Below, piece after piece: positions 22,733-44,565 of a DNA stretch of 64,000 nt; position 1 is the stretch's first letter, and each line of letters opens with the position of its first letter. The DNA comes from an uncultured Actinomycetes bacterium (GTDB lineage: Bacteria; Actinomycetota; Thermoleophilia; RBG-16-64-13). The notes under the pieces are model-generated. The model searched no databases. It was not told the DNA's origin and saw only the letters and a list, made by a program, of their open reading frames with translations. The DNA lies in contig CAMTXC010000010.1 of NCBI GenBank assembly GCA_947085635.1, forward strand, positions 18,151 to 82,150, given 5' to 3'. The position numbers were made by a program, and so were the translations under genes.

Positions 22733-22774
22733 AACCAGAAGCCAGTTTGTTCCAAGGAACCAGGTCCGATGATA

Positions 22775-25742: not shown

Positions 25743-25951
25743 GTGCTACTCCTCCTCCGTATTCTGTCTGCTTCTCCGACCGCCGACACGACTCGAGGGA
25801 TAAACCCCCGAGGCTTTCGACCACCGCGCTTCCTGGGGAAGCTCTGAGTCCGTTGCGGGACGCCTGACCCCTGCACCAATAGGCACCTCCCCCTTCCGTC
25901 GATCTTTCCGCCCACGAGCATGATTAGGGCCCGCACCTATCCCGCGCCCAC

Positions 25952-26968: not shown

Positions 26969-26969
26969 C

Positions 26970-27623
26970 TCAGCGACCGGACCTGTTCTCCCAGAAATCG
27001 AAGAACTGGCGGCTCTCGATCACGCTGCCGAAACCGGACTCGATGATGTCGAACATCGCGGTCTCGAACTTCTCGGCGTACGAAGCCGTGCAGTCCCTGA
27101 GCAGTACGAGGCGGTATCCGCGTTGGGTGGCGTCGGTCGCCGTGGTCCCGACGCACAGGTGCGTGGCGACGCCGGCCACGATGACGCTGTCGGCCTTGTA
27201 TCCCCACAGCAGCTGCTCCAGGCTGGTGCCCAGGAACGCGTTGAACCGGTGCTTGTCGATCACCGGCTCGCTCGGAAGCGGCCTCAGTTCGTCGACCACC
27301 TCCACGCCCCACGTTCCTTCCCGGAGTCCGCCTTCCCGGTACGGAGGCCGGGTCTCGGGGAAGAGACCGGCATCGAGCAGGTCGGACCGGATGCTCATGC
27401 GCGTGAAGATGATGGGGAGGGACCGGCTACGGCCGAACTCCACCAGCTTCTTCACGTTCGGAATGATGCTGATGCCCCGGCCGACATCGATTCCGAGCCG
27501 GCTCTGAAGCCAGCCCTCCCGATGGCAGTACTCGTTCTGCATGTCGATAACCAGGATGACGGGCGAGATGTACTTCTCGGGATCGAGAGCGAGGTCGGCG
27601 GACGGCATCTTCTCAGCTTCCAT
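26970..27623 (-). CDS. isochorismatase-family cysteine hydrolase (N-carbamoylsarcosine amidase/biuret hydrolase-like)
   Basis: Start moved to ATG 27623 (or 27608): MEAEKMPSADLALDPEKYISPVILVIDMQNEY...; catalytic Cys region VIVAGVATHLCVGTTATDA. Confidence 0.7.
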   Translation of the reverse strand: MEAEKMPSADLALDPEKYISPVILVIDMQNEYCHREGWLQSRLGIDVGRGISIIPNVKKLVEFGRSRSLPIIFTRMSIRSDLLDAGLFPETRPPYREGGLREGTWGVEVVDELRPLPSEPVIDKHRFNAFLGTSLEQLLWGYKADSVIVAGVATHLCVGTTATDATQRGYRLVLLRDCTASYAEKFETAMFDIIESGFGSVIESRQFFDFWENRSGR

Positions 27624-28037
27624 GATCGTCTGGTTTACTTCGAGACAACGCCCTCTCGACAGTACGCGAGGGCGAACAGCCTGAATAACCGGAGGATGCC
27701 ACGGTGAGAACCCGCCAGAATCGCATGAATCGTCGCCCCCACCATCCCGTAGGCCGCCATTACATCCTCCCGCCATGGGGTGACGGACCGCGACAACGGG
27801 TCGGACTCGCCTTTGGCGTTGATGCCGAGGCGTCAGCGCGAACCCTGCACTTGAGCAGCGCGAATGACCACTACTCTAGCAGCGTTCCGCAAGTCGAGTC
27901 AACCCATCGCCGCAGAACGTGTCCACCGAAACTTGTCGCGGACCCCTGCGGAGTGCGACTCGAGGCGCGCCGTTGCGCTCCCCCCGACGCGCTGCTACAG
28001 TCTGCGCGAGAGACGTAGGCCCTGGGGAGGCTGAACC

Positions 28038-28412
28038 ATGTCGCGGAATCTTCCTCAAGACACCATATTGACTGTCGGATACGGGCTCCTGCCCTCCAAC
28101 ACCGCCACAGGCCAGCTGTATCGGGTGCTGACGATTGCTGCGGAGGTGGACCGAGAAACCCATCGCATCCTCGACGCCTCCATCAACCTTGTAACGGAGA
28201 CCGCCGAACGTTGGGTGACCCGCTCGATGGTGGGCAACGACCTGACATCGGAGGCGGACGCGACGGCTTTCGCCCAGCGCGTCGATACCGATTTCCTCGG
28301 GAATTCGAGGAAGGCGATCGTGCACGCGTATCGGGACATGGCCCAAAGGTACATCGAGCATTTCGAGCAAGGTCATGTGGACACCAAGGAAAGTTCCCCT
28401 TTGAACGAATGA
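28038..28412 (+). CDS. hypothetical protein (resembles DUF3870 family small proteins)
   Basis: 124 aa in a locally lower-GC pocket; pattern TVGYGLLPSN...VDRETHRILDASINLVT...GNSRKAIVHAYRDMAQRY resembles DUF3870 as I recall it; from memory, not certain. Confidence 0.4.
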   Translation: MSRNLPQDTILTVGYGLLPSNTATGQLYRVLTIAAEVDRETHRILDASINLVTETAERWVTRSMVGNDLTSEADATAFAQRVDTDFLGNSRKAIVHAYRDMAQRYIEHFEQGHVDTKESSPLNE

Positions 28413-28719
28413 CCCGGCTGTTGTACACTGGGTCGGCCTACGCCTGACGGCTCCGCGCCTCGTAGGAGTACGCGAGCTGCGGAGACACCGCCGATCCAGG
28501 CCAGGCGAGGAGTTCGGGTACCTCAGCGGGATCCGTCGACGCTATGAGCAGGCGGTTCCCTCGCGTGGAGCACATTCCGCGGCCTGCTCTCGAGGACCGC
28601 ATTCGGGGTGTGAGTCAAGTCCAGCGCAACCGTTGAACGGTTGTGGCTGGACTTTTCTGTTCTGTGGGAAGACAGACTGCCGTCGGGCGGAGCACACGCA
28701 GCACAAGGTAGGGAGGGTC

Positions 28720-29901
28720 ATGAGGCTCTACGAATTCGAAAGCAAGGAGCTCCTGAGGCGGGCCGGCATCTCGGTACCCCGGGGACGTCTCATCGCCGCC
28801 CTCGACGAGATCGGCTCGGTGGGCGACGACGAGTTCCCGATCGCCGCCAAGAGCCAGGTGCTCGCAGGCGGCCGCATGAAGGCCGGAGGCATCGCCTTCG
28901 CCCAGGATGCGACGGAGCTGGCGGCCATCTGCACAAGGCTGCTGGGGACGACGATTCGAGGCCATGTGGTGGACCGCCTGCTTCTCGAGCCGCGCGTCGA
29001 CGTCGCCCGAGAGTATTACCTCGGCGTCACCTACGATTCGGCCGCAAAGACCCCGGTCGCCATCTTCAGCCGATCGGGCGGCATCGATGTCGAGGAGGCC
29101 AGAGCGGTCTACAAAGCCGTCTTCCCCTTGCTGCCTCCCCCTTCCTCCTTCCGCTTCAAGGAGCTCCTCGCGAACGCCGGGGTGAAAGGCAGGCTGCTCT
29201 CGAAGATGACCGACACTATGACCCGGCTCGCCGAGCTCTTCCTCGAACACGACTGCACTCTGGCCGAGATCAATCCCCTGGCCGTGACCGCTTCCGGAGA
29301 CCTCCTGGCTCTCGACGCGCATATCGACCTGGACGAGGATGCTTTCTACAGACACCGGGACCTGGTTTCCGACTGGGGTCTCGACTCCCGAGATTCCAGT
29401 GAGCGGACGCAATCGGAGTTCGAGCGCAAGGCGGCGGAGATCGACACGACCGACCACCGCGGCGTCGCCGGAAGAATGGTGGCCTTCGACGGGAGCCTCG
29501 GCCTGCTCATCGGCGGTGGCGGAGCCAGCCTCACGGCGTTCGACGCCGTCCGGCGCCACGGCGGGACCCCCGCAAACTACTGCGAGATCGGCGGCAACCC
29601 CTCGGTCTGGAAGGTCAAGGAGCTCACCAAGCTCATCATGGGCAAGCCTGGTGTGGAGAAGCTCGCGGTCATCATGAACGTGGTCTCCAACACACGCGTC
29701 GACCTCGTCGCCCGGGGCGTGGTCAAGGCGATGCTCGAACTGGGGCTGGAACCGTCCGAGCGCGTCGCCATCTTCAGGATACCCGGCGCGTGGGAAGACG
29801 ACGGCTTCGCTATCCTCCGCAAGTACGGCGTGCCCTACGTCGACCGGACAGTGTCGATCGACGAGGCCGCGCGTCGAGCCGTGACCTCGGAGGGGAGCTG
29901 A
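28720..29901 (+). CDS. succinyl-CoA synthetase beta-subunit homolog (ADP-forming acyl-CoA ligase, ATP-grasp subunit; malate/citrate/itaconate thiokinase-like)
   Basis: Start at ATG 28720 (GGGAGGG SD): MRLYEFESKELLRRAGISVPRG... equals SucC N-terminus; ATP-grasp then CoA-ligase domain; stop 1 nt before alpha-subunit gene. Confidence 0.8.
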   Translation: MRLYEFESKELLRRAGISVPRGRLIAALDEIGSVGDDEFPIAAKSQVLAGGRMKAGGIAFAQDATELAAICTRLLGTTIRGHVVDRLLLEPRVDVAREYYLGVTYDSAAKTPVAIFSRSGGIDVEEARAVYKAVFPLLPPPSSFRFKELLANAGVKGRLLSKMTDTMTRLAELFLEHDCTLAEINPLAVTASGDLLALDAHIDLDEDAFYRHRDLVSDWGLDSRDSSERTQSEFERKAAEIDTTDHRGVAGRMVAFDGSLGLLIGGGGASLTAFDAVRRHGGTPANYCEIGGNPSVWKVKELTKLIMGKPGVEKLAVIMNVVSNTRVDLVARGVVKAMLELGLEPSERVAIFRIPGAWEDDGFAILRKYGVPYVDRTVSIDEAARRAVTSEGS

Positions 29902-29902
29902 G

Positions 29903-30799
29903 ATGTCTATCCTTGTTGACCGCGACACGGTCATTATCGTCCAGGGGATCACCGGGCGGGAGGCCGCCTCGTTCACCAAGGACTCGCTCGACTACGGAGC
30001 CCGCGTTGTCGGCGGGGTCACCCCGGGAAAAGGCGGTCAGGAGGTCTTCGGCCTGCCCGTCACCGACACGGTCCGCGAGCTCACGGAACGGTTCCATGTA
30101 GACGCGACGGTGATCTCCGTGCCTCCGGCCTTCGTCAAGGATGCGGCGTTCGAGGCCGTCGAGAACGGCATCAAGCTCCTACTGATCGTCACGGAACGTG
30201 TGCCGAGAAGAGACGTGGTCGAGATCGTCGACCTTTGCAGACTGCGCCAAGCCCGGCTCGTCGGGCCGAATTCCCTGGGCGTGATCAGCCCGGGCAAGAG
30301 CCGACTGGGGATGGTGGGCGGACCCGCTCAGGACGTTCGCAAGAGCTATGCCCCCGGTCCCGTAGGCATCATGAGCCGCTCGGGCGGCATGACGACCGAG
30401 ATAGCCAACCTGCTGACCGTCGCGGGTCTAGGCCAGTCGACCTGCGTCTCCATCGGGGGAGACCCGATCGTCGGCACGCAGTTCGCCGATCTGATGGCCG
30501 ACTTCGATGCGGACCCCGAGACCGAAGCCCTGGTCTTCTTCACCGAACCCGGAGGCGCCATGGAGACGGCTCTGGCCGAACGGTTGCGCGAGTGCCCGAG
30601 CCGTTTGCCGATCTTCTGCTTCATCGCGGGCAAGTTCGTGGACGAGATGCGCGGAGTGCGCTTCGGTCACGCCGCCACCCTGGTGCGATCGGAGGCGGAC
30701 ACGACGGAAGCGAAGGCGCGCACGCTCCGCGAAGCCGGCGTCTCCGTGGTCGAGGAGCTCTCGAGACTGCCCGAAGTGGTGCGGGAGGCCCTCTCGTGA
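29903..30799 (+). CDS. succinyl-CoA synthetase alpha-subunit homolog (CoA-binding, phospho-His)
   Basis: MSILVDRDTVIIVQGITGREA...; phosphohistidine loop RFGHAATLV; 298 aa. Confidence 0.8.
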   Translation: MSILVDRDTVIIVQGITGREAASFTKDSLDYGARVVGGVTPGKGGQEVFGLPVTDTVRELTERFHVDATVISVPPAFVKDAAFEAVENGIKLLLIVTERVPRRDVVEIVDLCRLRQARLVGPNSLGVISPGKSRLGMVGGPAQDVRKSYAPGPVGIMSRSGGMTTEIANLLTVAGLGQSTCVSIGGDPIVGTQFADLMADFDADPETEALVFFTEPGGAMETALAERLRECPSRLPIFCFIAGKFVDEMRGVRFGHAATLVRSEADTTEAKARTLREAGVSVVEELSRLPEVVREALS

Positions 30800-30860
30800 G
30801 AAGTGTGGATCCCAAGAACGCGGGCTGCGGCGCGGTTCACAGCGGCGACCAGGAGGAGCC

Positions 30861-31070
30861 ATGGCTGTTTTCATCAGTGTGACACTCGACGAGAGCGCCT
30901 GCGATCGCTACGACGGCTGCCGGATTCTCCTCGGCAAGTGCCCGGTCGACATCTTCCGGGAGGTGGACGGTCGAGTCGTGGTCTCGGAGGAGAACGTGGA
31001 CGAATGTACCTTGTGCGGCCTTTGCTGGGAAGCGACCCCGGGGGCCGTGGTCGTGCAGAAGCTCTACTGA
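30861..31070 (+). CDS. small ferredoxin-like protein (two Cys clusters)
   Basis: 69 aa; ACDRYDGCRILLGKCP and CTLCGLC; strong AGGAGGAG SD 4 nt upstream of ATG. Confidence 0.55.
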   Translation: MAVFISVTLDESACDRYDGCRILLGKCPVDIFREVDGRVVVSEENVDECTLCGLCWEATPGAVVVQKLY

Positions 31071-31098
31071 TCAACGCTGAATGCTGGAGGCCTTCGGA

Positions 31099-31986
31099 AT
31101 GGGCGAAGCGAACCGAAGCTGGCTGTTCGTCCCGGGCAGCAGCGAGAAGATGGTGGGCAAGATTACGGGTTTCGAGGCTGACTGCATCATCCTCGACCTG
31201 GAGGACGCGGTAGCTCCTCACCTCAAGTCCGAGGCGCGCCGGCTCTGCTCCGAAGCGATCGGAATGAGCGGCATCCGTGCCCGCGTCTTCGTGAGGATCA
31301 ACCCGCTCGAGACGAGCGGCGGCCGCGACGACCTCGCCGCGGTGGTCCGTCCTGGGCTCGCCGGCATCGTCCTGCCCAAAGCGGAGAGTCGCGCCCAGAT
31401 CGATGCCCTGGACGCGTACCTGCGGGAGAACGAGGAGCGGAACGGACTGCCCGCGGACACGGTAGTGATCGCGCCGCTGGTGGAGACGCCGCGCGGGATC
31501 CTGAACACGCTGTCTCTCGCCGAAGCTCCCCGAGTGTCGGCTCTCTGCTTGGGCGGAGAGGATCTGTCCCTGACATTGGGCGCGCGCCGTACGCCTCAAG
31601 CAAGGGAGCTGGAGTTCGCTCGGGGCATGCTGGTTACCGCAGCGGCGGCGGCAGGCCGGCAGGCGGTGGATACCGTATGGACTGATGTACGGGACTTGGA
31701 GGGCCTTGCCCGGGAGTGCCGGCAGATGCGGGACTTGGGCTACACCGGCAAGCTGGCCATTCACCCGGCCCAGATCCGCCCGATCCACGATGCCTTCTCA
31801 CCCAGCGATGAGGAACTCGCGCAGGCTCACCGCGTGGTCGAGGCCTTCGAAGCGGCCGGCTCGGGAGTCGCCTCGCTCGACGGAAAGATGCTCGACGCCC
31901 CGGTAGTCGAACGGGCGCGCAGGCTCGTTGCGCAGGCAGAACGACATGCCGGCGGCGCTGAAGGCCGCGGCTCGCTCAGGCAGTGA
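31099..31986 (+). CDS. HpcH/HpaI-CitE family acyl-CoA lyase (citryl-/malyl-/citramalyl-CoA lyase-like)
   Basis: Start at ATG 31099 (MGEANRSWLFVPGSSEKM...), CitE-type DLEDAVAP and ...HPAQIRPIHDAF motifs. Confidence 0.8.
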   Translation: MGEANRSWLFVPGSSEKMVGKITGFEADCIILDLEDAVAPHLKSEARRLCSEAIGMSGIRARVFVRINPLETSGGRDDLAAVVRPGLAGIVLPKAESRAQIDALDAYLRENEERNGLPADTVVIAPLVETPRGILNTLSLAEAPRVSALCLGGEDLSLTLGARRTPQARELEFARGMLVTAAAAAGRQAVDTVWTDVRDLEGLARECRQMRDLGYTGKLAIHPAQIRPIHDAFSPSDEELAQAHRVVEAFEAAGSGVASLDGKMLDAPVVERARRLVAQAERHAGGAEGRGSLRQ

Positions 31987-32030
31987 GCCGCGGCCCCAGG
32001 CCCTTCCGAATGCGAGAAGAAGGGGGAGAA

Positions 32031-33587
32031 ATGGAAGGACACACGGGGTCGACGCACCCCGAGCACGCTCTGGCGGCGGCTGCCGCTGGACTCACGTGGA
32101 AGGACGTGCCCGAGAGCACCCGAAGCAGTGTTCGTCGTCTGTTTCTCGATTGGCTGGGGTCCGCGCTGGCCGGTTCCCGCATGAAGCCAATCCTCATGCT
32201 TTCCCAGGTCTGCGACCATCAGGGCTGGATCGATCGCACTGCTCCCGGTAATAGCCTGTCACCCGGACCAGCGACAGTGATCCCGTCCTCAGCGACAGCG
32301 GGACCCCTGGTTGCCGCGCTCCTCAACGCCTCGGCCAGCCACGTGGTGGAGATGGACGATCTGCACAACGCCTCCATCTACCACCCCGGGACCTGCGTTT
32401 TCCCGGCGGCTCTCGCTGTCGCGGAGTCCCTCGGCGCGAGCGGGGTCGACCTCCTCACGGCCGCCGTGGCCGCATACGAAGTGTCACTCAGGATCGGAGA
32501 GGCTCTCGGGCCCGAGCACTACGCGTACTTCCACACGACCGGCACGGCCGGCACGCTGGGTGCGGCGGTGGCCGCCGGCCACCTCCTGGGTCTTGATCGG
32601 CAGTCGATGCTCTGGGCTCTAGGCAGCGCCGCAACGCAGGCTGCCGGACTCTGGCAGTTCCTGTCCGAAGGAGCGATGAGCAAGCAACTGCACACGGCCA
32701 AGGCCGCCTTCGACGGCGCCCTGTCGGCCTATTTGGCCGCCGAAGGATTCACCGGGCCCGAGAGGGGTGTCACGGGCCCCAGGGGGCTCCTGGCAGCGAC
32801 GACGGCTGCGGGGACCCCTGCCAACCTGGCAGGAGAGGATCTGCGGGCACGGCAGATGGAGAGGTTGCTCGCCGGCGTGGGGACGAGCCGCGATCCGGGC
32901 ACGTCCCAGCGCTGGCTTTTCGAGACCTTCAAGACACCGGAGGTCTCGATCAAACTGCACCCGTCGTGCCGGCATACTCACCCCTCCGTGGACGCCCTCA
33001 TCTCCATCATGCGAACCAACGGGCTTCAGGCGGGCGAGGTGGCCGAGATCCGAGCTCACGTGTACTCAGGCGCGTACGACCGGCTGAAGGACGTCGAACC
33101 GGTCGATCCCTGGTCGGCCAAGTTCAGCATGCCGTTCTGCCTGGCTCAGGCCGCCCTTCGCGGGCGCCTCGACCTAGAGGCGTTCACCGAGGAGGCCCTG
33201 GCAGACGCGCGGGTCACCGACCTCATGGCTCGGGTGAGCCTGCTGGTCGATCCGACGCTTGACTCCCAGTACCCTCGCCAATGGCCCTCGTGGGTGGAGG
33301 TCGAGACCACAAGCGGCGACCGCTTTGAACAACGGGTGGACACGCCCAAGGGCGACCCGGAGAACCCGCTCACCGACGGGGAGCTCGAGGACAAGTTCCG
33401 CCACCTCGCCGGGAGCGTGCTTCCAGCAGATGCCGTCGGGAGGCTGCTCAGAGATACGGCCGGGCTTGCCAACCTCGATGATGTGCGCTTTCTGCTCCAG
33501 CCGGTGCGGTTGACCCTCGATCCCGGGACGCCCGCCGACCAGACGACCCTAGCCGGCGACGCATCCATCGCTCAGGCAAAGCGGTGA
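32031..33587 (+). CDS. MmgE/PrpD family protein (2-methylcitrate dehydratase/cis-aconitate decarboxylase family)
   Basis: Start ATG 32031 (AAGGGGGAG SD); 518 aa; PrpD N- and C-domains (..IYHPGTCVFPAALAVAE.., ..LHPSCRHTHPSVDAL..). Confidence 0.8.
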   Translation: MEGHTGSTHPEHALAAAAAGLTWKDVPESTRSSVRRLFLDWLGSALAGSRMKPILMLSQVCDHQGWIDRTAPGNSLSPGPATVIPSSATAGPLVAALLNASASHVVEMDDLHNASIYHPGTCVFPAALAVAESLGASGVDLLTAAVAAYEVSLRIGEALGPEHYAYFHTTGTAGTLGAAVAAGHLLGLDRQSMLWALGSAATQAAGLWQFLSEGAMSKQLHTAKAAFDGALSAYLAAEGFTGPERGVTGPRGLLAATTAAGTPANLAGEDLRARQMERLLAGVGTSRDPGTSQRWLFETFKTPEVSIKLHPSCRHTHPSVDALISIMRTNGLQAGEVAEIRAHVYSGAYDRLKDVEPVDPWSAKFSMPFCLAQAALRGRLDLEAFTEEALADARVTDLMARVSLLVDPTLDSQYPRQWPSWVEVETTSGDRFEQRVDTPKGDPENPLTDGELEDKFRHLAGSVLPADAVGRLLRDTAGLANLDDVRFLLQPVRLTLDPGTPADQTTLAGDASIAQAKR

Positions 33588-35296
33588 CGATCCGTTCGCA
33601 CGCTCTCATCATCGTGGGAGGTGGGCTCGCCGGGCTCAGAGCGGCCATCGCAGCGGCCGAACGCGGTGTGGACTGCGCGGTCGTATCCCTCGTCCATCCG
33701 GTACGCTCCCACTCGGGGGCGGCGCAGGGGGGCATCAACGCCAGCCTCGCCAACCACCCGGACGCGCAGGGGGACGATCCCCAGTCGCACGCCTTCGATA
33801 CCGTCAAGGGGTCTGACTACCTGGGAGACCAGGACGCGATCCGGATACTCTGCGACGAGGCGCCGCTACGCATCTACGAGCTCGAGCATTGGGGCGTTCC
33901 TTTCAGCCGCTTCTCCAACGGCACGATCGCCCAACGTCCGCTCGGAGGGGCGAGCCATCCTCGAGCCTGCTACGCCGCGGACAAGACCGGTCACTACCTG
34001 CTCCATACGGTCTACGAGCGGGCCGTTTCTCTGGGTCTGTGCGTCTACGATGAGGTCTCGGTCCAGGAGCTCGTGGTAGACGAGGGCAGATGCATCGGCC
34101 TCGTGGCCTACGATCTCAAAAGCGGCAGGATCGAAGGCTTCGCCGCCGACGCCGTCATCCTGGCCACCGGCGGCTCGGGTCGGATCTACGGTCGCTCCAC
34201 GAGTGCGCTGATCAATATCGGAGCAGGCGTAGCCATGGCCTACCGAGTCGGCGTGTCCGTGAAAGACCCCGAGTTCGTGCAGTTCCATCCCACGACCCTT
34301 TACGGGACCAACATCCTCATGAGCGAGGGGTGCCGCGGCGAGGGCGGGTATCTGTTGAACGGGGAGAACGAACGCTTCATGGAAAGGTACGCGCCCCAGT
34401 TCATGGAGCTGGCTCCGCGTGACCTCGTGGCCCGCTCCATACAACGCGAGATCGACGAGGGCCGGGGCATCGACGGCCGGCCGTACGTCCATCTCGATCT
34501 GCGCCATCTCGGGGTGCGTGTAATCGAGGAGAGGTTGCCCGGCATCCGCGACCTCTGCATCCATTTCGCGGGCATCGACCCAGTGGAGCAGCCCATCCCG
34601 ATCCAGCCCGGGCAGCACTACTCCATGAGCGGCATCGACGTCGCCTGCGACGGGGCCACGTGCGTCGAGGGACTCTTCGCGGTTGGTGAGGCCGCCTGTC
34701 TCTCCGTGCACGGAGCGAACCGCCTGGGCGGTAACTCACTCCTCGAGACGATCGTCTTTGGAGCTCGGGTCGGGGAGTCGGCGGCCGCTCTCGCCTGTCA
34801 GGCAAAGCCCGATCGAGGCAGGTTGGAACCCCTCGTGGAGGCCGCCGTCCGCCGGTTCGAGGCGAAGCTCGAGGGCCTGATAGCCGACCCGGGGACCGAG
34901 AACCCGTACACGATGCGCTCCCAGGTGACGGAGATCATGGACAGGCACGTGCAGGTCTTCCGCACGCGGGAGGGCCTGGAGGAGGCGGTCGCCCGCTTGA
35001 CCGAGCTCAGGGATCGTTACGCTGGTGTGGGCCTCCGGAACGGTGGGAGGGTGTTCAATCTCGACATGTTGCGCGTCCTCGACCTCGACGCCATGATCGA
35101 CCTTGCCTTGGCGGCCGCCGTAGGGGCCCTGGCGCGGGAGGAATCGAGGGGGGCCCATTCGCGGGCCGATTTCCAGGTTCGAGACGATGCCAACTGGCTG
35201 AAGCACACCCTTGCGTACCGCACGGCCACCGGGCCGCGGATCGAGTACAGGCCCGTGGTCATCGAGCAGTTCGAGCCGCAAGAACGTAAGTACTGA
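33584..35296 (+). CDS. succinate dehydrogenase/fumarate reductase flavoprotein-subunit paralog (soluble context)
   Basis: 570 aa; GTG start overlapping prpD stop (GTGA); FAD motif IVGGGLAGLRAAI, covalent-FAD His in RSHSGAAQGG, ...HPTTLYGTNILMSEGCRGEGG...; close to 60% identical to canonical sdhA at 46142-47854. Confidence 0.8.
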   Translation: MTIRSHALIIVGGGLAGLRAAIAAAERGVDCAVVSLVHPVRSHSGAAQGGINASLANHPDAQGDDPQSHAFDTVKGSDYLGDQDAIRILCDEAPLRIYELEHWGVPFSRFSNGTIAQRPLGGASHPRACYAADKTGHYLLHTVYERAVSLGLCVYDEVSVQELVVDEGRCIGLVAYDLKSGRIEGFAADAVILATGGSGRIYGRSTSALINIGAGVAMAYRVGVSVKDPEFVQFHPTTLYGTNILMSEGCRGEGGYLLNGENERFMERYAPQFMELAPRDLVARSIQREIDEGRGIDGRPYVHLDLRHLGVRVIEERLPGIRDLCIHFAGIDPVEQPIPIQPGQHYSMSGIDVACDGATCVEGLFAVGEAACLSVHGANRLGGNSLLETIVFGARVGESAAALACQAKPDRGRLEPLVEAAVRRFEAKLEGLIADPGTENPYTMRSQVTEIMDRHVQVFRTREGLEEAVARLTELRDRYAGVGLRNGGRVFNLDMLRVLDLDAMIDLALAAAVGALAREESRGAHSRADFQVRDDANWLKHTLAYRTATGPRIEYRPVVIEQFEPQERKY

Positions 35297-35372
35297 GTCG
35301 TACTGAGTCGGTCCCCGACAGGCCGGGGCAGAATACCGCGGATCGGTCGGGGAGGATCTCACCGGGGGGGAG

Positions 35373-36506
35373 ATGCCGTCGTCTCTGAAGGGGGAGCGCA
35401 CAGAAGGGCGACCGGAGCTACCCGTTCTCCGGCTGCTCTCCCAGGTCGTCGGCGCCAGCCTCTGCGCCGTCTGCGGCACCTGCGTCGCCGTCTGTCCCGA
35501 GGGCTGCCTGGAGGCCGGGGACGAGTCGCCCGTCTACCTCGGAGGCTGCTCGAGCTGCATGGCCTGCGTGGAGTGCTGTTCGGGCAAGGAACTGCCAATG
35601 CCAGAGCTCGAACGACACCTCTTCGGCAGGGTGCGCGGGGATGAGGAACATCTCGGCGTCTACGACTCTGCTCATGTCGGACACGCCGTCGAGCCGCACG
35701 TGAGGCGTGCCGGCACGTCCGGCGGGGTGGTCACCGCCCTCCTCACCGCGTTGCTGCACGAGGAGCGCGTTACGGCGGCGCTCTGCACGGTCTTCGACGA
35801 AGACCTCCCGTATCGGCCCGTGGCGGCGATCCTCAGAGACCCGGACGCTATCCTGGCCGCGGCGCAGTCCAAGTACGCGCTCACCCCACAGCTCGCCGCT
35901 CTGCCAAAGGCACGACCGGGCGATCGACTTGCCGTGGTAGGACTGCCCTGCCAGATCGCCGGGCTGCGCAAGGTCTCACTGGCCGGTCGGCTGCGCGTGG
36001 AGGTCGCGGTCACGGTCGGCCTCTTCTGCCTCTCGGGCTTCCATCTCGACGCCACGAGGTTCATCGTGGAGGAGGTGATGGGCCTGTCCCTGCACGACGG
36101 CACCAGCCTCGAATACCGCCATGGCTCCTTCCCTGGGAGTCCGTCGGTGACGACGAAAACGGGGGAGCGCCGCAGCATTCCGTATTCGGAGGCCAAGCAG
36201 CACTTGCGCATGTTCCGCCCCTACCGCTGCATGGTGTGCTGCGACTGGTCCGCGGAGCTGGCGGACCTGTCGGCCGGAGATCTGTGGTCCGATCCCTCGC
36301 GGCGGGGCTACACCAGCCTCCTCGTGCGCACGCGGCCGGGCGCCGAGGCCCTACGGGTGGCAGAACGAAGCGGCGCCGTGTACATGGAGCCCGCCGATGG
36401 AGCCCTGATCGCCCAGAACCCGGGCTTCTACTACAAGAAGCACGCGAACGCCGTCTTTCTCCGCGAGGCCCGCGCGCACGGCCTGCCCTGTCCGACCTAT
36501 CCGTGA
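35373..36506 (+). CDS. FrhB/FdhB-family Fe-S flavoprotein (coenzyme F420 hydrogenase/dehydrogenase beta-subunit family) with N-terminal 2x[4Fe-4S] domain
   Basis: CAVCGTCVAVCPEGC and CSSCMACVECC clusters then FrhB_FdhB N/C domains (...GTSGGVVTALL..., ...YRCMVCCDWSAELADLSAGDLW...). Confidence 0.7.
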   Translation: MPSSLKGERTEGRPELPVLRLLSQVVGASLCAVCGTCVAVCPEGCLEAGDESPVYLGGCSSCMACVECCSGKELPMPELERHLFGRVRGDEEHLGVYDSAHVGHAVEPHVRRAGTSGGVVTALLTALLHEERVTAALCTVFDEDLPYRPVAAILRDPDAILAAAQSKYALTPQLAALPKARPGDRLAVVGLPCQIAGLRKVSLAGRLRVEVAVTVGLFCLSGFHLDATRFIVEEVMGLSLHDGTSLEYRHGSFPGSPSVTTKTGERRSIPYSEAKQHLRMFRPYRCMVCCDWSAELADLSAGDLWSDPSRRGYTSLLVRTRPGAEALRVAERSGAVYMEPADGALIAQNPGFYYKKHANAVFLREARAHGLPCPTYP

Positions 36507-36549
36507 CGCATCACGACATTAGCCTGACAGCCACACGAAGGGAGGATTC

Positions 36550-38130
36550 ATGTTCGACCTGCTCATCGTCAACGGAAGGGTGATCACCGGCCGGGGGAAT
36601 CCCTGGTTCGAAGCCGATGTGGCCGTGGTCGGAGACACGATTGCGCGAATCGGCCGCCTCGGCGACACCGAGGCCAAGACCCGCATCGACGCTGGGGGGC
36701 GGTTCGTGGCCCCCGGCTTCATCGACGCCCACAGCCACTCCGACCTCTTTCTGATCAAGGAGCCAACGGCCGAGGCCAAGGTCATGCAGGGGGTCACCAC
36801 GGAGAACGTGGGCATGGACGGCATGTCGGTCGCTCCCATCAAGGCTGAGGACGTTCGGGACTGGAGGACCCATCTCTCGGGCCTGGCGGGAGACCCTCCC
36901 ATCGAATGGACGTGGCGGAGCTTCGCCGACTACCTCGATGTACTCGACGGCCTGCCCACCTCTGACAACGTCACCTCCTACGCGGGCCTGGGGACCATCA
37001 GACTCATGGTCATGGGCACGACGTCCCGTGCAGCCTCCTCGGAGGAGATCAGGAGCATGCAGGTCCTGGCCGCTACGGCCATGGAGGAGGGCGCCCGCGG
37101 GATCTCCTCGGGCTTGATCTACCCCCCGAGCCAGTACCAAGGCGTCAACGAGGTCGCCGAGGTCGCCCGGGCCGTAACCCCCTACGACGGCATCTACAAC
37201 GTGCACATCCGCAGCGAGGGCGACGGGCTGCTTCAGTCGGTGGAGGAGGTCATCGAGATCGGACGTCGTTCGGGCATCCCGGTGGTCATCACGCACTTCA
37301 AGGCCATGGGAAAGCGCAATTGGGGGCTCTCCGAGAACGCGCTGTCTCTTGTCGACACGGCCCGGGCCGAGGGCATCGACGTGACCATCGAGCAGTACCC
37401 CTACACGGCCGCCAGCACCATGTTCCACGCGGTGATCCCACCCTGGTATCACGCCCAGGGCCCCAAGGAGCTGGTGAAGGCCCTGAAGACCGATAGAGAG
37501 CCGATCAAGAAAGACATCGCGGAGCGCATCGACTGGGAGAACTGGGCTTCGAACAACGGATGGGACAACATCGTCATCTCCTCGGTGGAGTCGGAGGCCA
37601 ACAAGGCCTTCGAAGGGAAGAGCGTGGCGGAGATCGCGCGGGCCCGCGGTCTCTCCGACCCGGCCGACGCGGCTCTCGAACTTCTGGCCGAGGAGAACCT
37701 GGCGGTGGGCATGGTCGTCTTCTGCATGGACGAGGGCGACATCCGGCGCATCATGCGACACCCCACGGTGAACTTCATCACCGACGGTCTGCTCGGCGGC
37801 AAGCCCCACCCTCGGGTCTACGGGACCTTCCCCCGGGTGCTGGGGCGATACGTGCGCGACGAGGGCGTCCTCGGGCTGGAGCAGGCCGTGCGTAAGATGA
37901 CATCACTTCCCGCCGAGAAGCTGCGTTTGCGGAAGAAGGGGGTGCTCGCCGCCGGGTACGACGCCGATATCACCGTCTTCGATGCCGGGACCGTCCGCGA
38001 CCGAGCGACCTTCGACGAACCGAGGCAGTACCCCGTGGGCGTGGACTGGGTGATCGTGAACGGTCAGGTGGTTGTGGACCAAGGGCGGCACACCGGCGCA
38101 CGGCCGGGCAAGACTATACGCACCCGATAG
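36550..38130 (+). CDS. D-aminoacylase family amidohydrolase (N-acyl-D-amino-acid deacylase-like, Amidohydro_3)
   Basis: MFDLLIVNGRVITGRG...FIDAHSHSD...; 526 aa; GGAGG SD. The 432-aa antisense ORF 36511..37809 is rejected. Confidence 0.8.
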   Translation: MFDLLIVNGRVITGRGNPWFEADVAVVGDTIARIGRLGDTEAKTRIDAGGRFVAPGFIDAHSHSDLFLIKEPTAEAKVMQGVTTENVGMDGMSVAPIKAEDVRDWRTHLSGLAGDPPIEWTWRSFADYLDVLDGLPTSDNVTSYAGLGTIRLMVMGTTSRAASSEEIRSMQVLAATAMEEGARGISSGLIYPPSQYQGVNEVAEVARAVTPYDGIYNVHIRSEGDGLLQSVEEVIEIGRRSGIPVVITHFKAMGKRNWGLSENALSLVDTARAEGIDVTIEQYPYTAASTMFHAVIPPWYHAQGPKELVKALKTDREPIKKDIAERIDWENWASNNGWDNIVISSVESEANKAFEGKSVAEIARARGLSDPADAALELLAEENLAVGMVVFCMDEGDIRRIMRHPTVNFITDGLLGGKPHPRVYGTFPRVLGRYVRDEGVLGLEQAVRKMTSLPAEKLRLRKKGVLAAGYDADITVFDAGTVRDRATFDEPRQYPVGVDWVIVNGQVVVDQGRHTGARPGKTIRTR

Positions 38131-38162
38131 ACTCGACGAGGCAGATTGAGGAGGAATTCGTC

Positions 38163-40097
38163 ATGAGTGAAGCAACGATCCTGGGCACGCCGATCAAGAT
38201 CGGGACCCGGACCGCCAAGAACCGCATCGGGCTCTCACCGATGTGCGTGAATCTGGGTGATTCCCTAGGTCATGTGACCCAGCGGACCATCGACTACTAC
38301 GAGGCCAGAGCGAGAGGCGGCGCGGGCGTGGTCATCGTGGAGAACGCCCACGTCGACGGGAAGGCGAGCCGCGGCATGTCTGCCATGCTCGCGGCCCACT
38401 CCGACGGCATGCTTCCCGGGCTCAACGGCCTGGCGGAGGCGATCACACGACACGGCGCGCTGGCCATCCTGCAGATCAACCACATGGGCCGCCAGGGCGA
38501 CCCGTCACTCATCGACGGCGCGCTGGTCGCCCCCTCCGCCGAGGCCGACCCGGTAGTTGGGTCCGTTCCGCGGGCGCTGGAGGCCGATGACCTCGAGTCG
38601 ATCAAGAAGGCCTTCTGCGACACCGCGGCCCGGGCCGTGGCCGCCGGGTTCGATGGGGTCGAGGTGCACATGGCCCATGGGTACCTGCTCTCGGAGTTCC
38701 TCTCGCCAAGCGCCAACCACCGCACCGACGAGTACGGCGGCTCCCTGGAGAACCGCATGCGCTATCCACTCGAGGTCCTGGAGGCCGTGCGGACCCGTCT
38801 TGGGACCGACGCGATCGTCGGTGTGCGACTGAACGGGGACGACTACCTGGGCGAAGCCGGTCTCACGGTCGAGCAGGCTGCCGTCGTGGCCGCGCGGGTC
38901 GAGCAGTCGGGCGCCGACTACGTGAACGTAAGCGCGGCGGTCTACGCGTCGGTACCCTGGATGGTGCCGTCCCTGTATGCCCCCCCGGCGACCAACATCC
39001 ATCTAGCCGAGCGCATCAGAGGCTCGGTGGGCGTACCGGTCCTGGCGGCCGGCTCCGTTCTCGACAAAGGTCTGGCAGAGGACATCTTGACCACCGGCAA
39101 GGCCGATGTCGTTCTCCTGGGGAGAGGATTGATCGCCGATCCCGATCTGCCCGCGAAGTGGCTCCGTGACAACACCGACCAGGTGAGACGCTGCATCCGC
39201 TGCAACGACGGCTGCATCCAGAGGCTGCTCGACAAGGTCAGGGTGACCTGCGCCATCAACCCCCTTGCCGGTCACGAGAGAGAATGGGCCCTCCGGCCGG
39301 TCGCCCAGGCAGACGCGCGTCGTCTCCTCATCGCGGGCGGCGGTCCGGCCGGCCTGGAGGCCGCCCGCGTCGCCGCCCTTCGGGGTCATAGGGTCACCCT
39401 CTGCGAGAGCGAGCCGGAGCTGGGCGGCCAGGTGAGATTCGGCTGCCTACCCTCCTTCAAGGCCGACCTGCGCGGTTTGATCCCCTACTATCGGCGGCAG
39501 CTCGCGGATCTCGACGTCGACATCCGTACGGGCACCGAGGTGACAGTCGCCCTCGTCGGGGAGCTGACACCCGACCTGGTGATCGTCGCCGTCGGAGCGG
39601 AGCCGAGCATACCCGTTGTGCCGGGGGTGGAGCGGGCGGTGCTGGGACGGGACATCCATGCCAATCCCGGCATCGCCGGGCGGTCCGTCGTCGTGGTGGG
39701 CGGAGGGTTGGTGGGCTGCGAGGTGGCCCTCGAGCTCGCCGAGACCGATCGCCGCGTAACCGTGGTGGAAGCACTGCCCGAAGTGCTCCCGGGGATGAAC
39801 CTCATCAACCGGCTCACCCTTCTCGCGCGGCTGGCCGAGCACGGTGTCCGGCTGGCAACCGGATCGACCTTGACGGCCGTGACTGATCGTTCGGTGCTCA
39901 TCTCCGGAGCCGACGCGCGCGCGGAGGAACTCGAGGCCGAGACCGTGGTCATCGCCACGGGCCTGCTGCCGCGGCGCCGACTCGCGGGCGACCTGGCCGC
40001 GCAAGGGGTGTCCTACCTGGCCATCGGCGACTGCATAACCCCTCGGAACATCATGCAGGCGATCCACGCGGGATTCCACGCTGCACGGGAACTGTAG
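38163..40097 (+). CDS. Old Yellow Enzyme-FAD/NAD(P) two-domain oxidoreductase with [4Fe-4S] (2,4-dienoyl-CoA reductase/trimethylamine dehydrogenase family)
   Basis: 644 aa; OYE TIM-barrel (..HMAHGYLLSEFLSP..), CIRCNDGC Fe-S motif, then GGGPAGLEAA and VVVVGGGLVGCEVA dinucleotide-binding motifs. Confidence 0.8.
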   Translation: MSEATILGTPIKIGTRTAKNRIGLSPMCVNLGDSLGHVTQRTIDYYEARARGGAGVVIVENAHVDGKASRGMSAMLAAHSDGMLPGLNGLAEAITRHGALAILQINHMGRQGDPSLIDGALVAPSAEADPVVGSVPRALEADDLESIKKAFCDTAARAVAAGFDGVEVHMAHGYLLSEFLSPSANHRTDEYGGSLENRMRYPLEVLEAVRTRLGTDAIVGVRLNGDDYLGEAGLTVEQAAVVAARVEQSGADYVNVSAAVYASVPWMVPSLYAPPATNIHLAERIRGSVGVPVLAAGSVLDKGLAEDILTTGKADVVLLGRGLIADPDLPAKWLRDNTDQVRRCIRCNDGCIQRLLDKVRVTCAINPLAGHEREWALRPVAQADARRLLIAGGGPAGLEAARVAALRGHRVTLCESEPELGGQVRFGCLPSFKADLRGLIPYYRRQLADLDVDIRTGTEVTVALVGELTPDLVIVAVGAEPSIPVVPGVERAVLGRDIHANPGIAGRSVVVVGGGLVGCEVALELAETDRRVTVVEALPEVLPGMNLINRLTLLARLAEHGVRLATGSTLTAVTDRSVLISGADARAEELEAETVVIATGLLPRRRLAGDLAAQGVSYLAIGDCITPRNIMQAIHAGFHAAREL

Positions 40098-40153
40098 AAC
40101 GCGGTCGCGAGGTCCGCTCCGTCCGTCACGAGAAAGCAAGGGAGGCCGAGTCG

Positions 40154-40462
40154 ATGAGCGCTGAGGATCAAATCAAGGCGTTGCCCGCCGTCCAGATCGA
40201 CAACGATCGAGTGCGGGTTACCCAATGGAGCTTCGCGCCGGACGCACATACCGGCCGGCACGTTCACGAGTTCGCCTACGTCGTCGTCCCGCTCACCGAC
40301 GGTACCCTCGAGCTCACGACCCGCGACGGGCGGTCCACCGGAGAGTTGCGGGCCGGAGGATCCTACTACCGGCCCGAGGGGGTGGAGCACGACGTCGCGA
40401 ACGCGGGGCCGGGCGGCGTAGTCTTCGTGGAGATCGAGATGAAGGCCTATCCACGGGCCTGA
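40154..40462 (+). CDS. cupin domain protein
   Basis: 102 aa; HVHEFAYVVVPLTDG...YYRPEGVEHDV cupin His/Glu motifs; GGAGG SD. Confidence 0.6.
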   Translation: MSAEDQIKALPAVQIDNDRVRVTQWSFAPDAHTGRHVHEFAYVVVPLTDGTLELTTRDGRSTGELRAGGSYYRPEGVEHDVANAGPGGVVFVEIEMKAYPRA

Positions 40463-41932: not shown

Positions 41933-42159
41933 CCGTACCGCGCGCGGTTTCTCCGACGGGCAGCCGGTTTGCCTTGGGCCCACGGTCTCCACCCATACCG
42001 GTCGTGCAAGACGCCAACATCCGCCCCTAGGGGGACTGTTGCCACACGCACAGTGCCCGGTTTCCGGGGTAGGATGGTCGGGTACAGGCGGACATCGCGA
42101 TGCACGCACTGATGTGCGGTCTGTCGCGAACAAAGCACCACAAAGTGGAAGGAGCAAGG

Positions 42160-43035
42160 ATGAGCAAGGAGATCCTGGTGTCGTATGGGATCGACGTCGA
42201 CGCTGTGGCGGGCTGGCTCGGCTCGTATGGCGGTCAAGATTCGCCCAACGACATAAGCAGAGGGGTTTTCGCCGGCAAGGTGGGCAGCCTCCGGTTGCTC
42301 GATCTCTTCAAGAAATACGATCTGAAGACCACGTGGTTCATTCCCGGTCACTCCCTCGAGACCTTCCCCAACGAGATGCAGAAGGTCATGGATGCCGGCC
42401 ACGAGATCGGCCTGCACGGCTACTCGCACGAGAACCCGATCGCTCTGAGTCGCGAGCAGGAGCATCACATCCTGCGCTACACCCTCGAGCAGACGGAGAA
42501 GATGTGGGGCAAGAGGCCCCGGGGCTACGTCGCACCGTGGTGGGAAGTTGGCCCGCAGACGGTCGAGTTGCTGCTGGAGGCGGGCATCGAGTACGACCAC
42601 TCCATGATGCACGACGACTACCACCCCTACTACTTGCCCGAGTGGGAGCGGTGGACGTCGATCGACTATGAGAAGCCGGCATCGGAGTGGATGAAGCCGC
42701 TTGAGCAGGGTCCACCCTCCAAACTCATAGAAATCCCAGCCTCCTGGTACCTTGACGACCTACCCCCAATGATGTTCATCAAGGCTTCGCCCAACAGCCA
42801 CGGCTTTGTGAACCCACGGGACATCGAGCAACTGTGGCGGGACCAGTTCGACTGGGTCTACCGCGAGTTTGACTACGCGGTGTTCCCCATGACGATCCAC
42901 CCGGACGTGAGCGGCAAGCCGCAGGTGCTCATGATGCACGAACGACTGATCGGGCACATCCTCCGCCATCCCGGGGCGCGGTTCGTGACGATGTCGGAGA
43001 TCGCGGACGACTTCAAGAAGCGCTCCGGCTCTTAG
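42160..43035 (+). CDS. polysaccharide deacetylase-family hydrolase (PuuE allantoinase-like)
   Basis: Start ATG 42160 (GGAAGGAG SD); 291 aa; NodB-type TFDD-less but [11 protein letters not shown] and DxxDxPP motifs resembling PuuE group. Confidence 0.65.
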
Positions 43036-43062
43036 GAAACCAGGCCGCTCGTCGTCTTCGTG

Positions 43063-43120
43063 GGCGGTCTGCCTTCTCAGCCAACCTTGGGTTGGCAAGG
43101 GAAGGCAGACCGCCTCTTTG
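43063..43120 (+). terminator. strong intrinsic terminator downstream of PuuE-like gene
   Basis: Perfect 14-bp stem GGCGGTCTGCCTTC / GAAGGCAGACCGCC with nested CCAACC-TTG-GGTTGG loop, followed by TCTTTG. Confidence 0.6.
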
Positions 43121-43148
43121 CCGCCGGATGGGAACGGCGGCCCACGGA

Positions 43149-43739: not shown

Positions 43740-43776
43740 GTTTCCCGTTCCTCCATAGCGGCTGTCAGCCGGTTGT

Positions 43777-44535: not shown

Positions 44536-44565
44536 TGCTACCCCCTTGTCGCTATCATGTCCCGG

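Follow-up and report, generated by a model that had tools for sequence, protein, structure and literature searches.

Gene content and layout of the locus

We analysed a 64,000-nucleotide stretch of DNA (the window) from an uncultured Actinomycetes bacterium of the Thermoleophilia (Actinomycetota; assembly GCA_947085635.1, contig CAMTXC010000010.1, positions 18,151 to 82,150 of the forward strand). Our subject is a cluster of ten plus-strand genes in it, g1 to g10 (28720-40462), for which an earlier note had proposed a coenzyme A (CoA)-dependent dicarboxylate pathway. All ten open reading frames were present at or near the coordinates given in that note. Their third-position GC was 0.79-0.87, as for genuine genes in a window with 65% GC overall. 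Intergenic distances ranged from -4 to 76 nt, most starts had an upstream GGAGG-like sequence, and the GTGA overlap of g5 and g6 at 33584 was verified. Terminator-like sites between 27700 and 40700 numbered 0, as compared to 4.4 expected from shuffled sequence. With one strand, short gaps and no internal terminator, the ten genes have the layout of a single operon. Promoter and terminator scans and an Rfam search of the window gave nothing informative. The contiguous arrangement described earlier, with its Shine-Dalgarno sequences and short gaps or overlaps, was borne out, and three starts were shifted. The start of g3 was corrected to 30861, and those of g4 and g5 are more likely at 31099 and 32031, where Shine-Dalgarno sequences and independent gene calls agree.

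The first gene of the module lies upstream of g1 and was absent from the gene list of the earlier note; it encodes a DUF3870 protein of 124 aa (28038-28412, plus strand, Pfam PF12986). The genes g1 (28720-29901, ATP-grasp_2) and g2 (29903-30799, CoA_binding and Ligase_CoA) encode the SucC-like beta and SucD-like alpha subunits of an acyl-CoA ligase of the ADP-forming kind, whose predicted substrate is a C5-hydroxy-dicarboxylate (citramalate). A ferredoxin-like protein of 69 aa with six cysteines in conserved motifs is encoded by g3 (30861-31070), and a CitE/HpcH-family acyl-CoA lyase (HpcH_HpaI), predicted to act on (S)-citramalyl-CoA, by g4 (31099-31986). The product of g5 (32031-33587) belongs to the MmgE/PrpD family (MmgE_PrpD_N and _C) and is predicted to be an (S)-(R)-methylsuccinate (2-alkylsuccinate) isomerase. 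It is followed by g6 (33584-35296), an SdhA/FrdA-type flavoprotein paralog (FAD_binding_2 and Succ_DH_flav_C) and predicted methylsuccinate:acceptor dehydrogenase, and by g7 (35373-36506), an FrhB-type Fe-S flavoprotein (FrhB_FdhB_N and _C) that is its predicted electron-transfer partner. The last three genes encode a D-aminoacylase-family amidohydrolase (g8, 36550-38130, match to PDB 1M7J), an OYE-type FMN and FAD/NAD(P) reductase (g9, 38163-40097, Oxidored_FMN and Pyr_redox_2) and a small cupin of 102 aa (g10, 40154-40462, Cupin_2, 34.9 bits). Pfam and NCBIfam backed each of the family names given previously to g1, g2 and g4-g10. The naming of g3 as a 69-aa ferredoxin also stood: it had no Pfam match, but ferredoxin-type Cys motifs are kept in its orthologs.

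Conservation of gene order in related loci

Genome contigs were scanned with a PrpD alignment, the annotated neighbourhoods were fetched, and the window proteins were mapped by tblastn onto about 90 loci (designated L with a number). L003 retains g1-g8. L093 carries the hydrolase genes that flank the module in the window, then DUF3870 and g1-g6 followed directly by g8, and is without g7, g9 and g10. L090 comes from another Thermoleophilia metagenome-assembled genome (MAG) and comprises an FrhB-like gene, a TRAP dicarboxylate transporter, DUF3870, g1-g4, DUF1847, g5, g6 and an Fe-S protein gene; purine biosynthesis genes come after the module, and g8-g10 are missing. Based on the gene content of these three loci, the conserved core consists of DUF3870 and g1-g6, with g7 facultative, g8 lineage-specific, and g9 and g10 unique to the window genome. 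The ten genes are not conserved as one unit in L003, L090 and L093, and the unit is a composite that was put together from modules. The DUF3870 gene also precedes the module at L090 5080-5421 and L093 6146-6481, making three Thermoleophilia-type loci in all; its product had no solved relative and no NCBIfam match. The DUF1847 gene of L090 (9222-10004, 260 aa), placed between CitE and PrpD, has no counterpart in the window.

Related gene sets were found in other phyla. Two Brevibacillus loci (L056 and L071) have DctPQM, GntR, SucC, SucD, PrpD, SdhC, SdhA, SdhB, FumA, FumB and CitE genes in one direction, and in Brevibacillus centrosporus (L068) the same set occurs, but with a family III CoA transferase replacing the SucCD-like ligase. 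PrpD, class I fumarase, CitE and CoA transferase genes are together in Planococcaceae loci. A Chloroflexi locus combines a class I fumarase, SucCD-like genes, a small ferredoxin and an acyl-CoA dehydrogenase, and a deltaproteobacterial locus has PrpD, SucCD-like genes, an HD protein, CitE, a ferredoxin and an SDH-like pair. From the predicted functions of their genes, the Brevibacillus-type clusters read as racemise, oxidise to mesaconate, hydrate to (S)-citramalate, activate and cleave.

A pair of AtuA (PF07287) and DUF4387 genes adjoins PrpD/SdhA-like genes in L089 (4709-6440), L083 (4048-5677), L004, L084 and L085, the hosts being Pelotomaculum and Actinomycetes MAGs. In L083, L004 and L084 the pair is accompanied by a B12 diol dehydratase, its reactivase and an iron-type alcohol dehydrogenase (Fe-ADH). 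These loci may encode sister pathways acting on other substituted succinates; a literature search on DUF4387 or AtuA turned up nothing usable.

The PrpD-family protein

The g5 protein was found to be 41-49% identical to the products of PrpD genes within about 50 Ich-Mcd-Msi-Ict-Ccl clusters. In P. aeruginosa, C. necator and Pa. xenovorans the PrpD proteins of such clusters are proven (S)-(R)-methylsuccinate isomerases (PMC12290011). All seven active-site residues of the P. aeruginosa isomerase Msi (H88, E91, H102, Y148, H152, K202 and K266) are kept in g5 as H104, E107, H118, Y164, H168, K218 and K308, in the same columns as in the Pseudomonas in-cluster ortholog. The seven residues, including the Tyr that is specific to epimerising members, are also kept in every cluster-linked homolog checked. 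Based on the identity to Msi and these residues, g5 is most likely a racemase of the methylsuccinate isomerase type, and this function is favoured over the dehydration or decarboxylation that had been suggested for it. Matches to the IDS epimerase and to the PrpD equivalog reached only 123 and 35 bits, respectively; 2-methylcitrate dehydratase, aconitate decarboxylase and IDS epimerase were rejected as functions of g5 on scores far below those to Msi-type proteins. Gonner et al. recognise Msi by its adjacency to methylsuccinyl-CoA dehydrogenase; here the neighbour of g5 is the SdhA paralog, and no acyl-CoA dehydrogenase was detected with Pfam at the window locus.

The SdhA paralog

The g6 protein scored 746.6 bits against TIGR01812, the SdhA/FrdA subfamily (cut-off 567.3), and it keeps the His for covalent flavin adenine dinucleotide (FAD) binding (H45) and the catalytic residues H242, E255, R286, H354 and R399. 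At the substrate-contacting position of Escherichia coli SdhA Phe119, where an aromatic residue (Phe or Tyr) would be expected of a complex II flavoprotein, g6 has Leu. The numbering follows what we take to be the E. coli SdhA reference sequence, and it reproduces H45 and F119. The housekeeping SdhA of the window, about 10 kb away and 59% identical to g6, has Phe at 119. No SdhB, SdhC or SdhD gene lies within 28038-40462, so g6 lacks a co-encoded SdhB and membrane anchor. In L093, L004 and L084 the SdhA paralog occurs by itself, and it may therefore also borrow the housekeeping SdhB.

Leu was found at position 119 in 16 of the 17 PrpD-linked SdhA-like genes. On a rough neighbour-joining tree the Leu-bearing genes fall into at least two separate clades, and the clade of g6 adjoins the Phe-bearing housekeeping SdhA of the window. 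As a control we took the 150 family representatives nearest to g6, 96 of which were alignable at the motif; 68 of these had Phe, 12 had Tyr and 9 had Leu. The lone exception to the Leu rule is the gene at 12119-13734 of L091 (deltaproteobacterium CP070840), which adjoins PrpD, SucCD-like, HD, CitE and ferredoxin genes and is broken by a masked run of N. A change of Thr254 to Ser was considered as a second signature of g6 and dropped, Ser being common in ordinary family members.

E. coli succinate dehydrogenase (SDH) shows only weak oxidation of (S)-methylsuccinate, and the substitution F119L at this active-site position arose twice under selection for methylsuccinate use and raised the catalytic efficiency on methylsuccinate approximately twofold (bioRxiv 10.64898/2026.01.16.699985; 10.1101/2025.11.12.688011). 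Because SDH is reported to be (S)-specific, the pairing of an SDH-type enzyme with a racemase makes mechanistic sense. It may also be that position 119 reports the substituent at C2 of the substrate, with Glu for amino, Phe for hydrogen and Leu for alkyl. In L-aspartate oxidase the same column is presumably occupied by Glu121, which fits this rule.

CoA ligase, ferredoxin and lyase

In Pfam, g1 matched ATP-grasp_2 and, weakly, the Citrate_bind and Citrate_synth_N domains of ATP-citrate lyase. True succinyl-CoA synthetases have in the beta subunit a C-terminal Ligase_CoA domain with an NIFGGI(T/V)R loop. No Ligase_CoA (PF00549) was found in g1, and its loop reads NVVSN-TRVD where canonical SucC has NIFGGITRAD; Brevibacillus has NITNN-TQID, and the altered loop is common to cluster-linked homologs of four phyla. 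The phosphohistidine loop of g2 is kept, RFGHAATLV aligning with RMGHAGAII of PDB 2YV2 (GHAGA motif). Scores against the NCBIfam equivalogs were 244.2 bits for SucC (cut-off 370) and 283.6 bits for SucD (cut-off 336), and the malate-CoA ligase cut-off was likewise not reached (174.5 bits vs 604). Against the citryl-CoA synthetase 6HXQ_B, g1 scored 143.7 bits. Its subfamily is large and uncharacterised, with members in Chloroflexota, NC10, Binatia and Deltaproteobacteria. Judged by sequence, g1/g2 is a paralog of SucCD and not a true succinyl-CoA synthetase. A role as spare tricarboxylic acid (TCA) cycle genes was rejected on the scores, the motifs and the nearby canonical sdhCDAB and fumarase genes.

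The small ferredoxin g3 contains a C-x5-C-x6-CP ... DECTLCxLC motif, which is kept in L003, L090, L091, L092 and L093. Genes of this type always adjoin SucCD-like genes. They encode 69-71 aa at L090 8155-8370, L091 11888-12103, L092 10137-10346 and L093 8885-9094. Their place beside the ligase genes is kept in Actinomycetota, in Chloroflexota and in a deltaproteobacterium, and also in L092, where an SdhA-like gene is missing.

The lyase g4 covers all of the HpcH_HpaI profile (PF03328, positions 1-221 of 221, 174 bits) and shares 37-41% identity with Ccl from the itaconate clusters of Pseudomonas. It is similar in sequence to the citramalyl-CoA lyases CLYBL and RipC and about equally close to both: among solved structures, human CLYBL (5VXC) matched it with 136 bits and Yersinia RipC (3QLL) with 122 bits. 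The cut-off of the NCBIfam RipC_Ccl family (375) was not reached with 183.8 bits, and g4 was also below the citE equivalog cut-off.

These families leave room for two other substrates. The first would be a C4 route from succinate through fumarate, malate and malyl-CoA to glyoxylate and acetyl-CoA, or else a spare TCA set with g1/g2 as a second succinyl-CoA synthetase. C4 members exist in the SucCD-like, SdhA-like and CitE-like families, g6 is above the SdhA/FrdA subfamily cut-off, and the pairing of ligase and lyase recalls Mtk/Mcl. However, succinate is achiral, and a racemase-type PrpD protein with the full epimerase catalytic set would be useless. The low scores of g1/g2 for SucC, SucD and malate-CoA ligase, the lost GGI motif, and the Leu of g6, when a complete canonical, Phe-bearing sdhCDAB set lies 10 kb away, all speak against it, and we regard the C4 route as very unlikely.

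The second would be a tricarboxylate route, in which tricarballylate or aconitate is converted to citrate, citrate to citryl-CoA by g1/g2, and citryl-CoA cleaved by g4 in an ATP-citrate-lyase-like manner. The citrate domain matches of g1 and its score to 6HXQ could be explained in this way, in citrate lyase the citryl lyase subunit is CitE, and tricarballylate dehydrogenase is an FAD_binding_2 flavoprotein. Tricarballylate, however, is also achiral, and aconitate and citrate reach the TCA cycle without ATP cost. The closest characterised relative of g5 is a C5 isomerase, and related clusters swap the module with an itaconate/citramalate CoA transferase and pair it with a class I fumarase, not with aconitase. 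This makes a tricarboxylate substrate highly improbable. Citramalate is the methyl analogue of citrate, and a citrate-type binding domain in g1 would for that reason be a reasonable fit for a citramalate ligase.

The FrhB-type protein and the electron acceptor

The g7 protein has FrhB_FdhB_N (PF04422) and FrhB_FdhB_C (PF04432) domains preceded by an N-terminal 2x[4Fe-4S] ferredoxin domain, with CxxCxxCxxxCP motifs in the translation. Among solved structures it is closest to 8RIU_B (147 bits, residues 18-347), an archaeal protein that is the F420-reductase add-on subunit of a CO dehydrogenase, and all NCBIfam equivalog scores of g7 were under the cut-offs. The family is small (63 homologs found). 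Three arrangements bring a g7-type gene together with PrpD and SdhA-like genes: that of the window and L003, that of L090, and that of Pelotomaculum L089. The more distant FrhB-like homologs in L094 (36% identical) and L087 (57% identical) have no adjacent SdhA-like genes, and the link between FrhB-like and SdhA-like proteins thus holds for the closer group only. Based on this linkage g7 is predicted to be the electron-transfer partner of g6; our confidence in the identity of the redox partner of g6/g7 is low.

In Pelotomaculum L089 (6548-11602) a PrpD gene precedes 'SDH2', which consists of an FrhB-domain protein, SdhA and a [2Fe-2S] SdhB-like protein. The SdhA of this set also has Leu at the Phe119 position, and 'SDH2' may consequently, as far as its sequence suggests, not be a plain fumarate reductase.

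It is also conceivable that g6 and g7 work in the opposite direction, as a soluble reductase converting mesaconate, itaconate or fumarate to (methyl)succinate with F420H2, NAD(P)H or ferredoxin. Such an enzyme would be an electron sink, or would convert an unsaturated isomer to methylsuccinate that is then re-oxidised by the nearby housekeeping SDH. In solved structures g7 most resembles plug-in subunits of the F420-reductase type, whose domain order it shares, and IrdA, a member of the FAD_binding_2 family, reduces itaconate to methylsuccinate. Furthermore, the identical FrhB-SdhA-SdhB' set of Pelotomaculum thermopropionicum, 'SDH2', was put forward as a cytoplasmic fumarate reductase, and the soluble fraction of this organism contains NADH:fumarate reductase activity (PMC10308238). 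Pelotomaculum is a strict anaerobe, in which oxidation of a succinate-type substrate is difficult. On the other hand, a CitE-type lyase requires a hydroxylated substrate, and a purely reductive step would be unconnected to g1, g2 and g4. The clusters of aerobic Brevibacillus and of L083 have a membrane-anchored, quinone-type SdhCAB with the same Leu, the clusters bear importers and GntR regulators like catabolic operons, and the covalent-FAD His is conserved in g6. A reductive role is on balance unlikely.

Proposed catabolic route

Family assignments, residue conservation and synteny come directly from the data. With moderate confidence we interpret the core (DUF3870 and g1-g6, with g7 in some lineages) as serving the breakdown of a succinate with a 2-alkyl substituent, methylsuccinate being the most likely one. 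In this route g5 would interconvert (R)- and (S)-methylsuccinate, and g6 would oxidise the (S)-form to mesaconate, with the electrons leaving through g7 and possibly g3, or through the housekeeping SdhB. Mesaconate would be hydrated to (S)-citramalate by a class I fumarase encoded elsewhere. The ligase g1/g2 would then form (S)-citramalyl-CoA at the expense of ATP, and g4 would cleave it to acetyl-CoA and pyruvate. Mesaconate and citramalate could enter at the later steps. The substrate of every step, and the direction of the redox step, are what we infer from the enzyme families and their neighbours. A direct itaconate route was rejected, as the operon, L090 and L093 contain no itaconyl-CoA hydratase.

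The candidate for the hydration step is a two-subunit class I fumarase with Fumerase and Fumerase_C domains (48666-50071, minus strand, outside the operon). Class I fumarases act as mesaconases (PMC12290011), and their genes sit within the homologous Brevibacillus, Planococcus and Chloroflexi clusters. In the window the fumarase gene is part of a housekeeping region on the minus strand, about 5-10 kb downstream of the operon (45405-51331), together with a malic enzyme gene and a complete canonical sdhCDAB set (45405-48669). This region could supply the absent hydratase step, and possibly the SdhB partner too.

Several observations weigh against the methylsuccinate route. The operon, L090 and L093 lack a hydratase gene, and one step relies therefore on an enzyme encoded elsewhere. 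An insertion of about 26-50 residues distinguishes g5 from the proven isomerases. The nearest relatives of g5 and g6 (54-67% identical) adjoin B12 diol dehydratase, Fe-ADH and AtuA/DUF4387 genes, which hints at other substrates in that clade, and the PrpD-linked SDH-like gene of L091 has Phe at 119. The closest solved relatives of g7 reduce F420. With a potential of about -340 mV, F420 cannot take electrons from a succinate-type couple, which is about 370 mV more positive. It follows that either the acceptor differs or the enzyme runs reductively.

Of the pathway outlined in the earlier note, the branched dicarboxylate substrate stood, as a C5-type acid. So did its activation to a CoA ester by the SucCD-like enzyme, whose scores below cut-off and altered motif indicate that it is not a bona fide succinyl-CoA synthetase. 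CitE-type cleavage to acetyl-CoA and a 2-oxo acid was also upheld. The redox adjustment, which had been placed after CoA activation, was revised: dehydrogenation takes place most likely on the free acid, ahead of activation. The gene combination had been called uncharacterised, and we indeed did not find the enzyme set described as a natural pathway; it is nevertheless a variant of the itaconate/methylsuccinate pathway reported in 2025 (PMC12290011). In our literature search no natural SDH-type methylsuccinate dehydrogenase, no citramalate-CoA ligase and no such natural set of enzymes was described, and the acid-level route was found only as an engineered module.

Local additions and the hydrolase-rich surroundings

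The last three genes, g8, g9 and g10, are local additions outside the conserved module. The g8 protein scored 322 bits to the D-aminoacylase 1M7J, 286 bits to the N-acyl-D-Glu deacylase 3GIP and 214 bits to PRK09061 (cut-off 340). Its gene follows the module in L003 and L093 and is not found in L090. Release of the dicarboxylate from an N-acyl amino acid, as proposed earlier, consequently finds no comparative support outside this lineage, g8 not being part of the core. The architecture of g9 is of the FadH / 2-enoate-reductase type, with 2-naphthoyl-CoA reductase (299 bits) and 2,4-dienoyl-CoA reductase (248 bits) as its best solved relatives; L090 and L093 have no g9. The OYE homologs that come after the Msi genes in L011 and L028 are 32-33% identical, too distant to make g9 a member of the pathway. 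The g10 cupin had no counterpart in the related loci. Both g9, the enoate-type reductase of the earlier proposal, and g10 lie outside the conserved module and occur only in the window genome.

Upstream of the module, on the minus strand, are genes for an ABC transporter, a D-hydantoinase that passes the TIGR02033 equivalog cut-off, a second amidohydrolase, an asparaginase and an isochorismatase-type amidase. Downstream of the operon we found an SDR, a nitroreductase, a polysaccharide-deacetylase-like protein, an HD protein, a second SDR and a CN-hydrolase. The amide-hydrolysing genes and the ABC transporter thus flank the module at 16955-27776 and 42100-45402, and the set is conserved in L093. 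In L039 (Mesorhizobium marinum) the Msi cluster lies among homologs of several of the flanking hydrolases, with the deacetylase-like protein 58% identical. The dicarboxylate may be released from an imide, amide or hydantoin-type precursor.

The same chemistry could then serve another or bulkier substituted succinate, freed by g8 and the flanking hydrolases from a cyclic imide, a hydantoin, a half-amide or an N-acyl-D-amino acid, with methylsuccinate as a mere model substrate. The window and L093 share the hydrolase set, g8, the polysaccharide-deacetylase-like protein, the CN-hydrolase and the ABC transporter, and homologs of several such genes surround the Mesorhizobium marinum Msi cluster. 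The gene contexts around close relatives of g5 and g6 are varied, and according to the authors of the Msi study the Msi pocket could accept larger C3-modified substrates (PMC12290011). However, L090 has the core and a dicarboxylate TRAP transporter and none of the hydrolases, the association with hydrolases was seen in 1 of about 60 Msi loci, and the data name no specific precursor. We therefore hold this alternative to be rather unlikely, and methylsuccinate stays the preferred substrate.

As a tentative extension of the methylsuccinate route, g6 and g7, perhaps with g3, could form a soluble 2-alkylsuccinate enzyme of an uncharacterised type. This would be a complex II flavoprotein without SdhBCD, retuned by the Phe-to-Leu change and wired through its FrhB-type partner to a soluble carrier, for instance F420 or a ferredoxin. 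The same architecture would explain the Pelotomaculum 'SDH2', and in the window genome the module would stand at the terminus of a larger island that frees the dicarboxylate from nitrogen compounds of the cyclic imide or hydantoin type.

Further upstream, at 3495-14092, the window contains a separate cluster of hydantoinase/oxoprolinase A and B genes (ATP-dependent) and PxpA-like, carboxyltransferase (CT_A_B and CT_C_D), biotin carboxylase and PucR-type regulator genes. Another regulator of the PucR type is encoded at 60108-61988. The gene at 14683-16839 encodes an aldehyde:ferredoxin oxidoreductase (AFOR family), and L094 has another AFOR gene near its distant FrhB-like gene.

Implications

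The catabolism of methylsuccinate was worked out only in 2025, and was believed to be essentially proteobacterial and based on CoA esters. A second route, widespread and working on the free acid, is suggested by the window locus together with the related loci of Actinomycetota, Bacillota, Chloroflexota and Deltaproteobacteria. Synthetic CO2 fixation by the THETA and reductive methylaspartate cycles relies on the promiscuous E. coli SDH and is without a suitable CoA ligase. A natural F119L-like methylsuccinate dehydrogenase and a natural C5-dicarboxylate CoA ligase would directly serve such designs. If true, the position-119 rule could be used to annotate orphan SdhA paralogs. The pairing of SdhA and FrhB proteins also bears on electron transfer and on the Pelotomaculum 'SDH2'.

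Comparison with known systems

The itaconate/methylsuccinate cluster of P. aeruginosa and Cupriavidus necator consists of Ich, Mcd, Msi, Ict and Ccl (Gonner et al. 2025, PMC12290011). The window locus shares with it an Msi-type PrpD protein (41-49% identity and the same seven residues), a CitE lyase (37-41%) and the predicted end products acetyl-CoA and pyruvate, and its relatives are also associated with TRAP dicarboxylate transporters. It differs in having no family III CoA transferase, acyl-CoA dehydrogenase or itaconyl-CoA hydratase, and in having an ATP-dependent SucCD-like ligase, an SdhA-type flavoprotein predicted to act on the free acid and an FrhB-type partner. Most likely, as judged from these gene contents, three enzymes of the 2025 pathway are replaced, with an SdhA paralog, an ATP-dependent CoA ligase and an unusual Fe-S flavoprotein in their place. 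Msi was reported almost only from Pseudomonadota, and always beside Mcd (PMC12290011), whereas the window locus is actinobacterial and without Mcd.

A synthetic CoA-independent module in E. coli combines SDH F119L, a class I fumarase and citramalate lyase (bioRxiv 10.64898/2026.01.16.699985; 10.1101/2025.11.12.688011). Both systems have Leu at SdhA position 119, and in both a complex II enzyme converts methylsuccinate to mesaconate before hydration to citramalate, which for the window is a prediction. The synthetic module was engineered from promiscuous host enzymes and put forward as a new building block for synthetic pathways, whereas the window has an apparently dedicated natural paralog, and cleavage would proceed here via a CoA ester, with a ligase and a lyase, instead of citramalate lyase.

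The combination of a SucCD-type, ADP-forming ligase for a hydroxy acid and a lyase that releases acetyl-CoA is similar to malate thiokinase and malyl-CoA lyase of the serine cycle. In contrast to malate thiokinase, g1/g2 is under the malate-CoA ligase cut-off, and its predicted substrate is the C5 acid citramalate. Citryl-CoA synthetase and citryl-CoA lyase of the reductive TCA cycle in Aquificae likewise pair a SucCD-type ligase with an acetyl-CoA-releasing lyase, the latter being a homolog of citrate synthase and not of CitE.

The 'SDH2' of Pelotomaculum thermopropionicum (PTH_1492 FrhB-domain protein, sdh2A and sdh2B) was read as a fumarate reductase (PMC10308238). As in the window, an FrhB-type Fe-S flavoprotein stands beside an SdhA-type flavoprotein without a membrane anchor; g7 is 39% identical to the FrhB-like protein and g6 51% to the SdhA. 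The Pelotomaculum set differs by its [2Fe-2S] SdhB-like subunit and in having AtuA/DUF4387 genes where the window has the ligase and lyase. That publication took no account of the neighbouring PrpD gene or of the Leu signature. In Ca. Ethanoperedens, F420-reductase add-on subunits are found on CO dehydrogenase and formylmethanofuran dehydrogenase (PDB 8RIU, 8RJA; PMC11493965). The g7 protein resembles these subunits in its N-terminal 2x[4Fe-4S] ferredoxin domain, which in the add-ons docks to the host enzyme, followed by an FrhB-type [4Fe-4S]/FAD domain, whereas the host of g7 would be a complex II flavoprotein, for which F420 reduction is infeasible.

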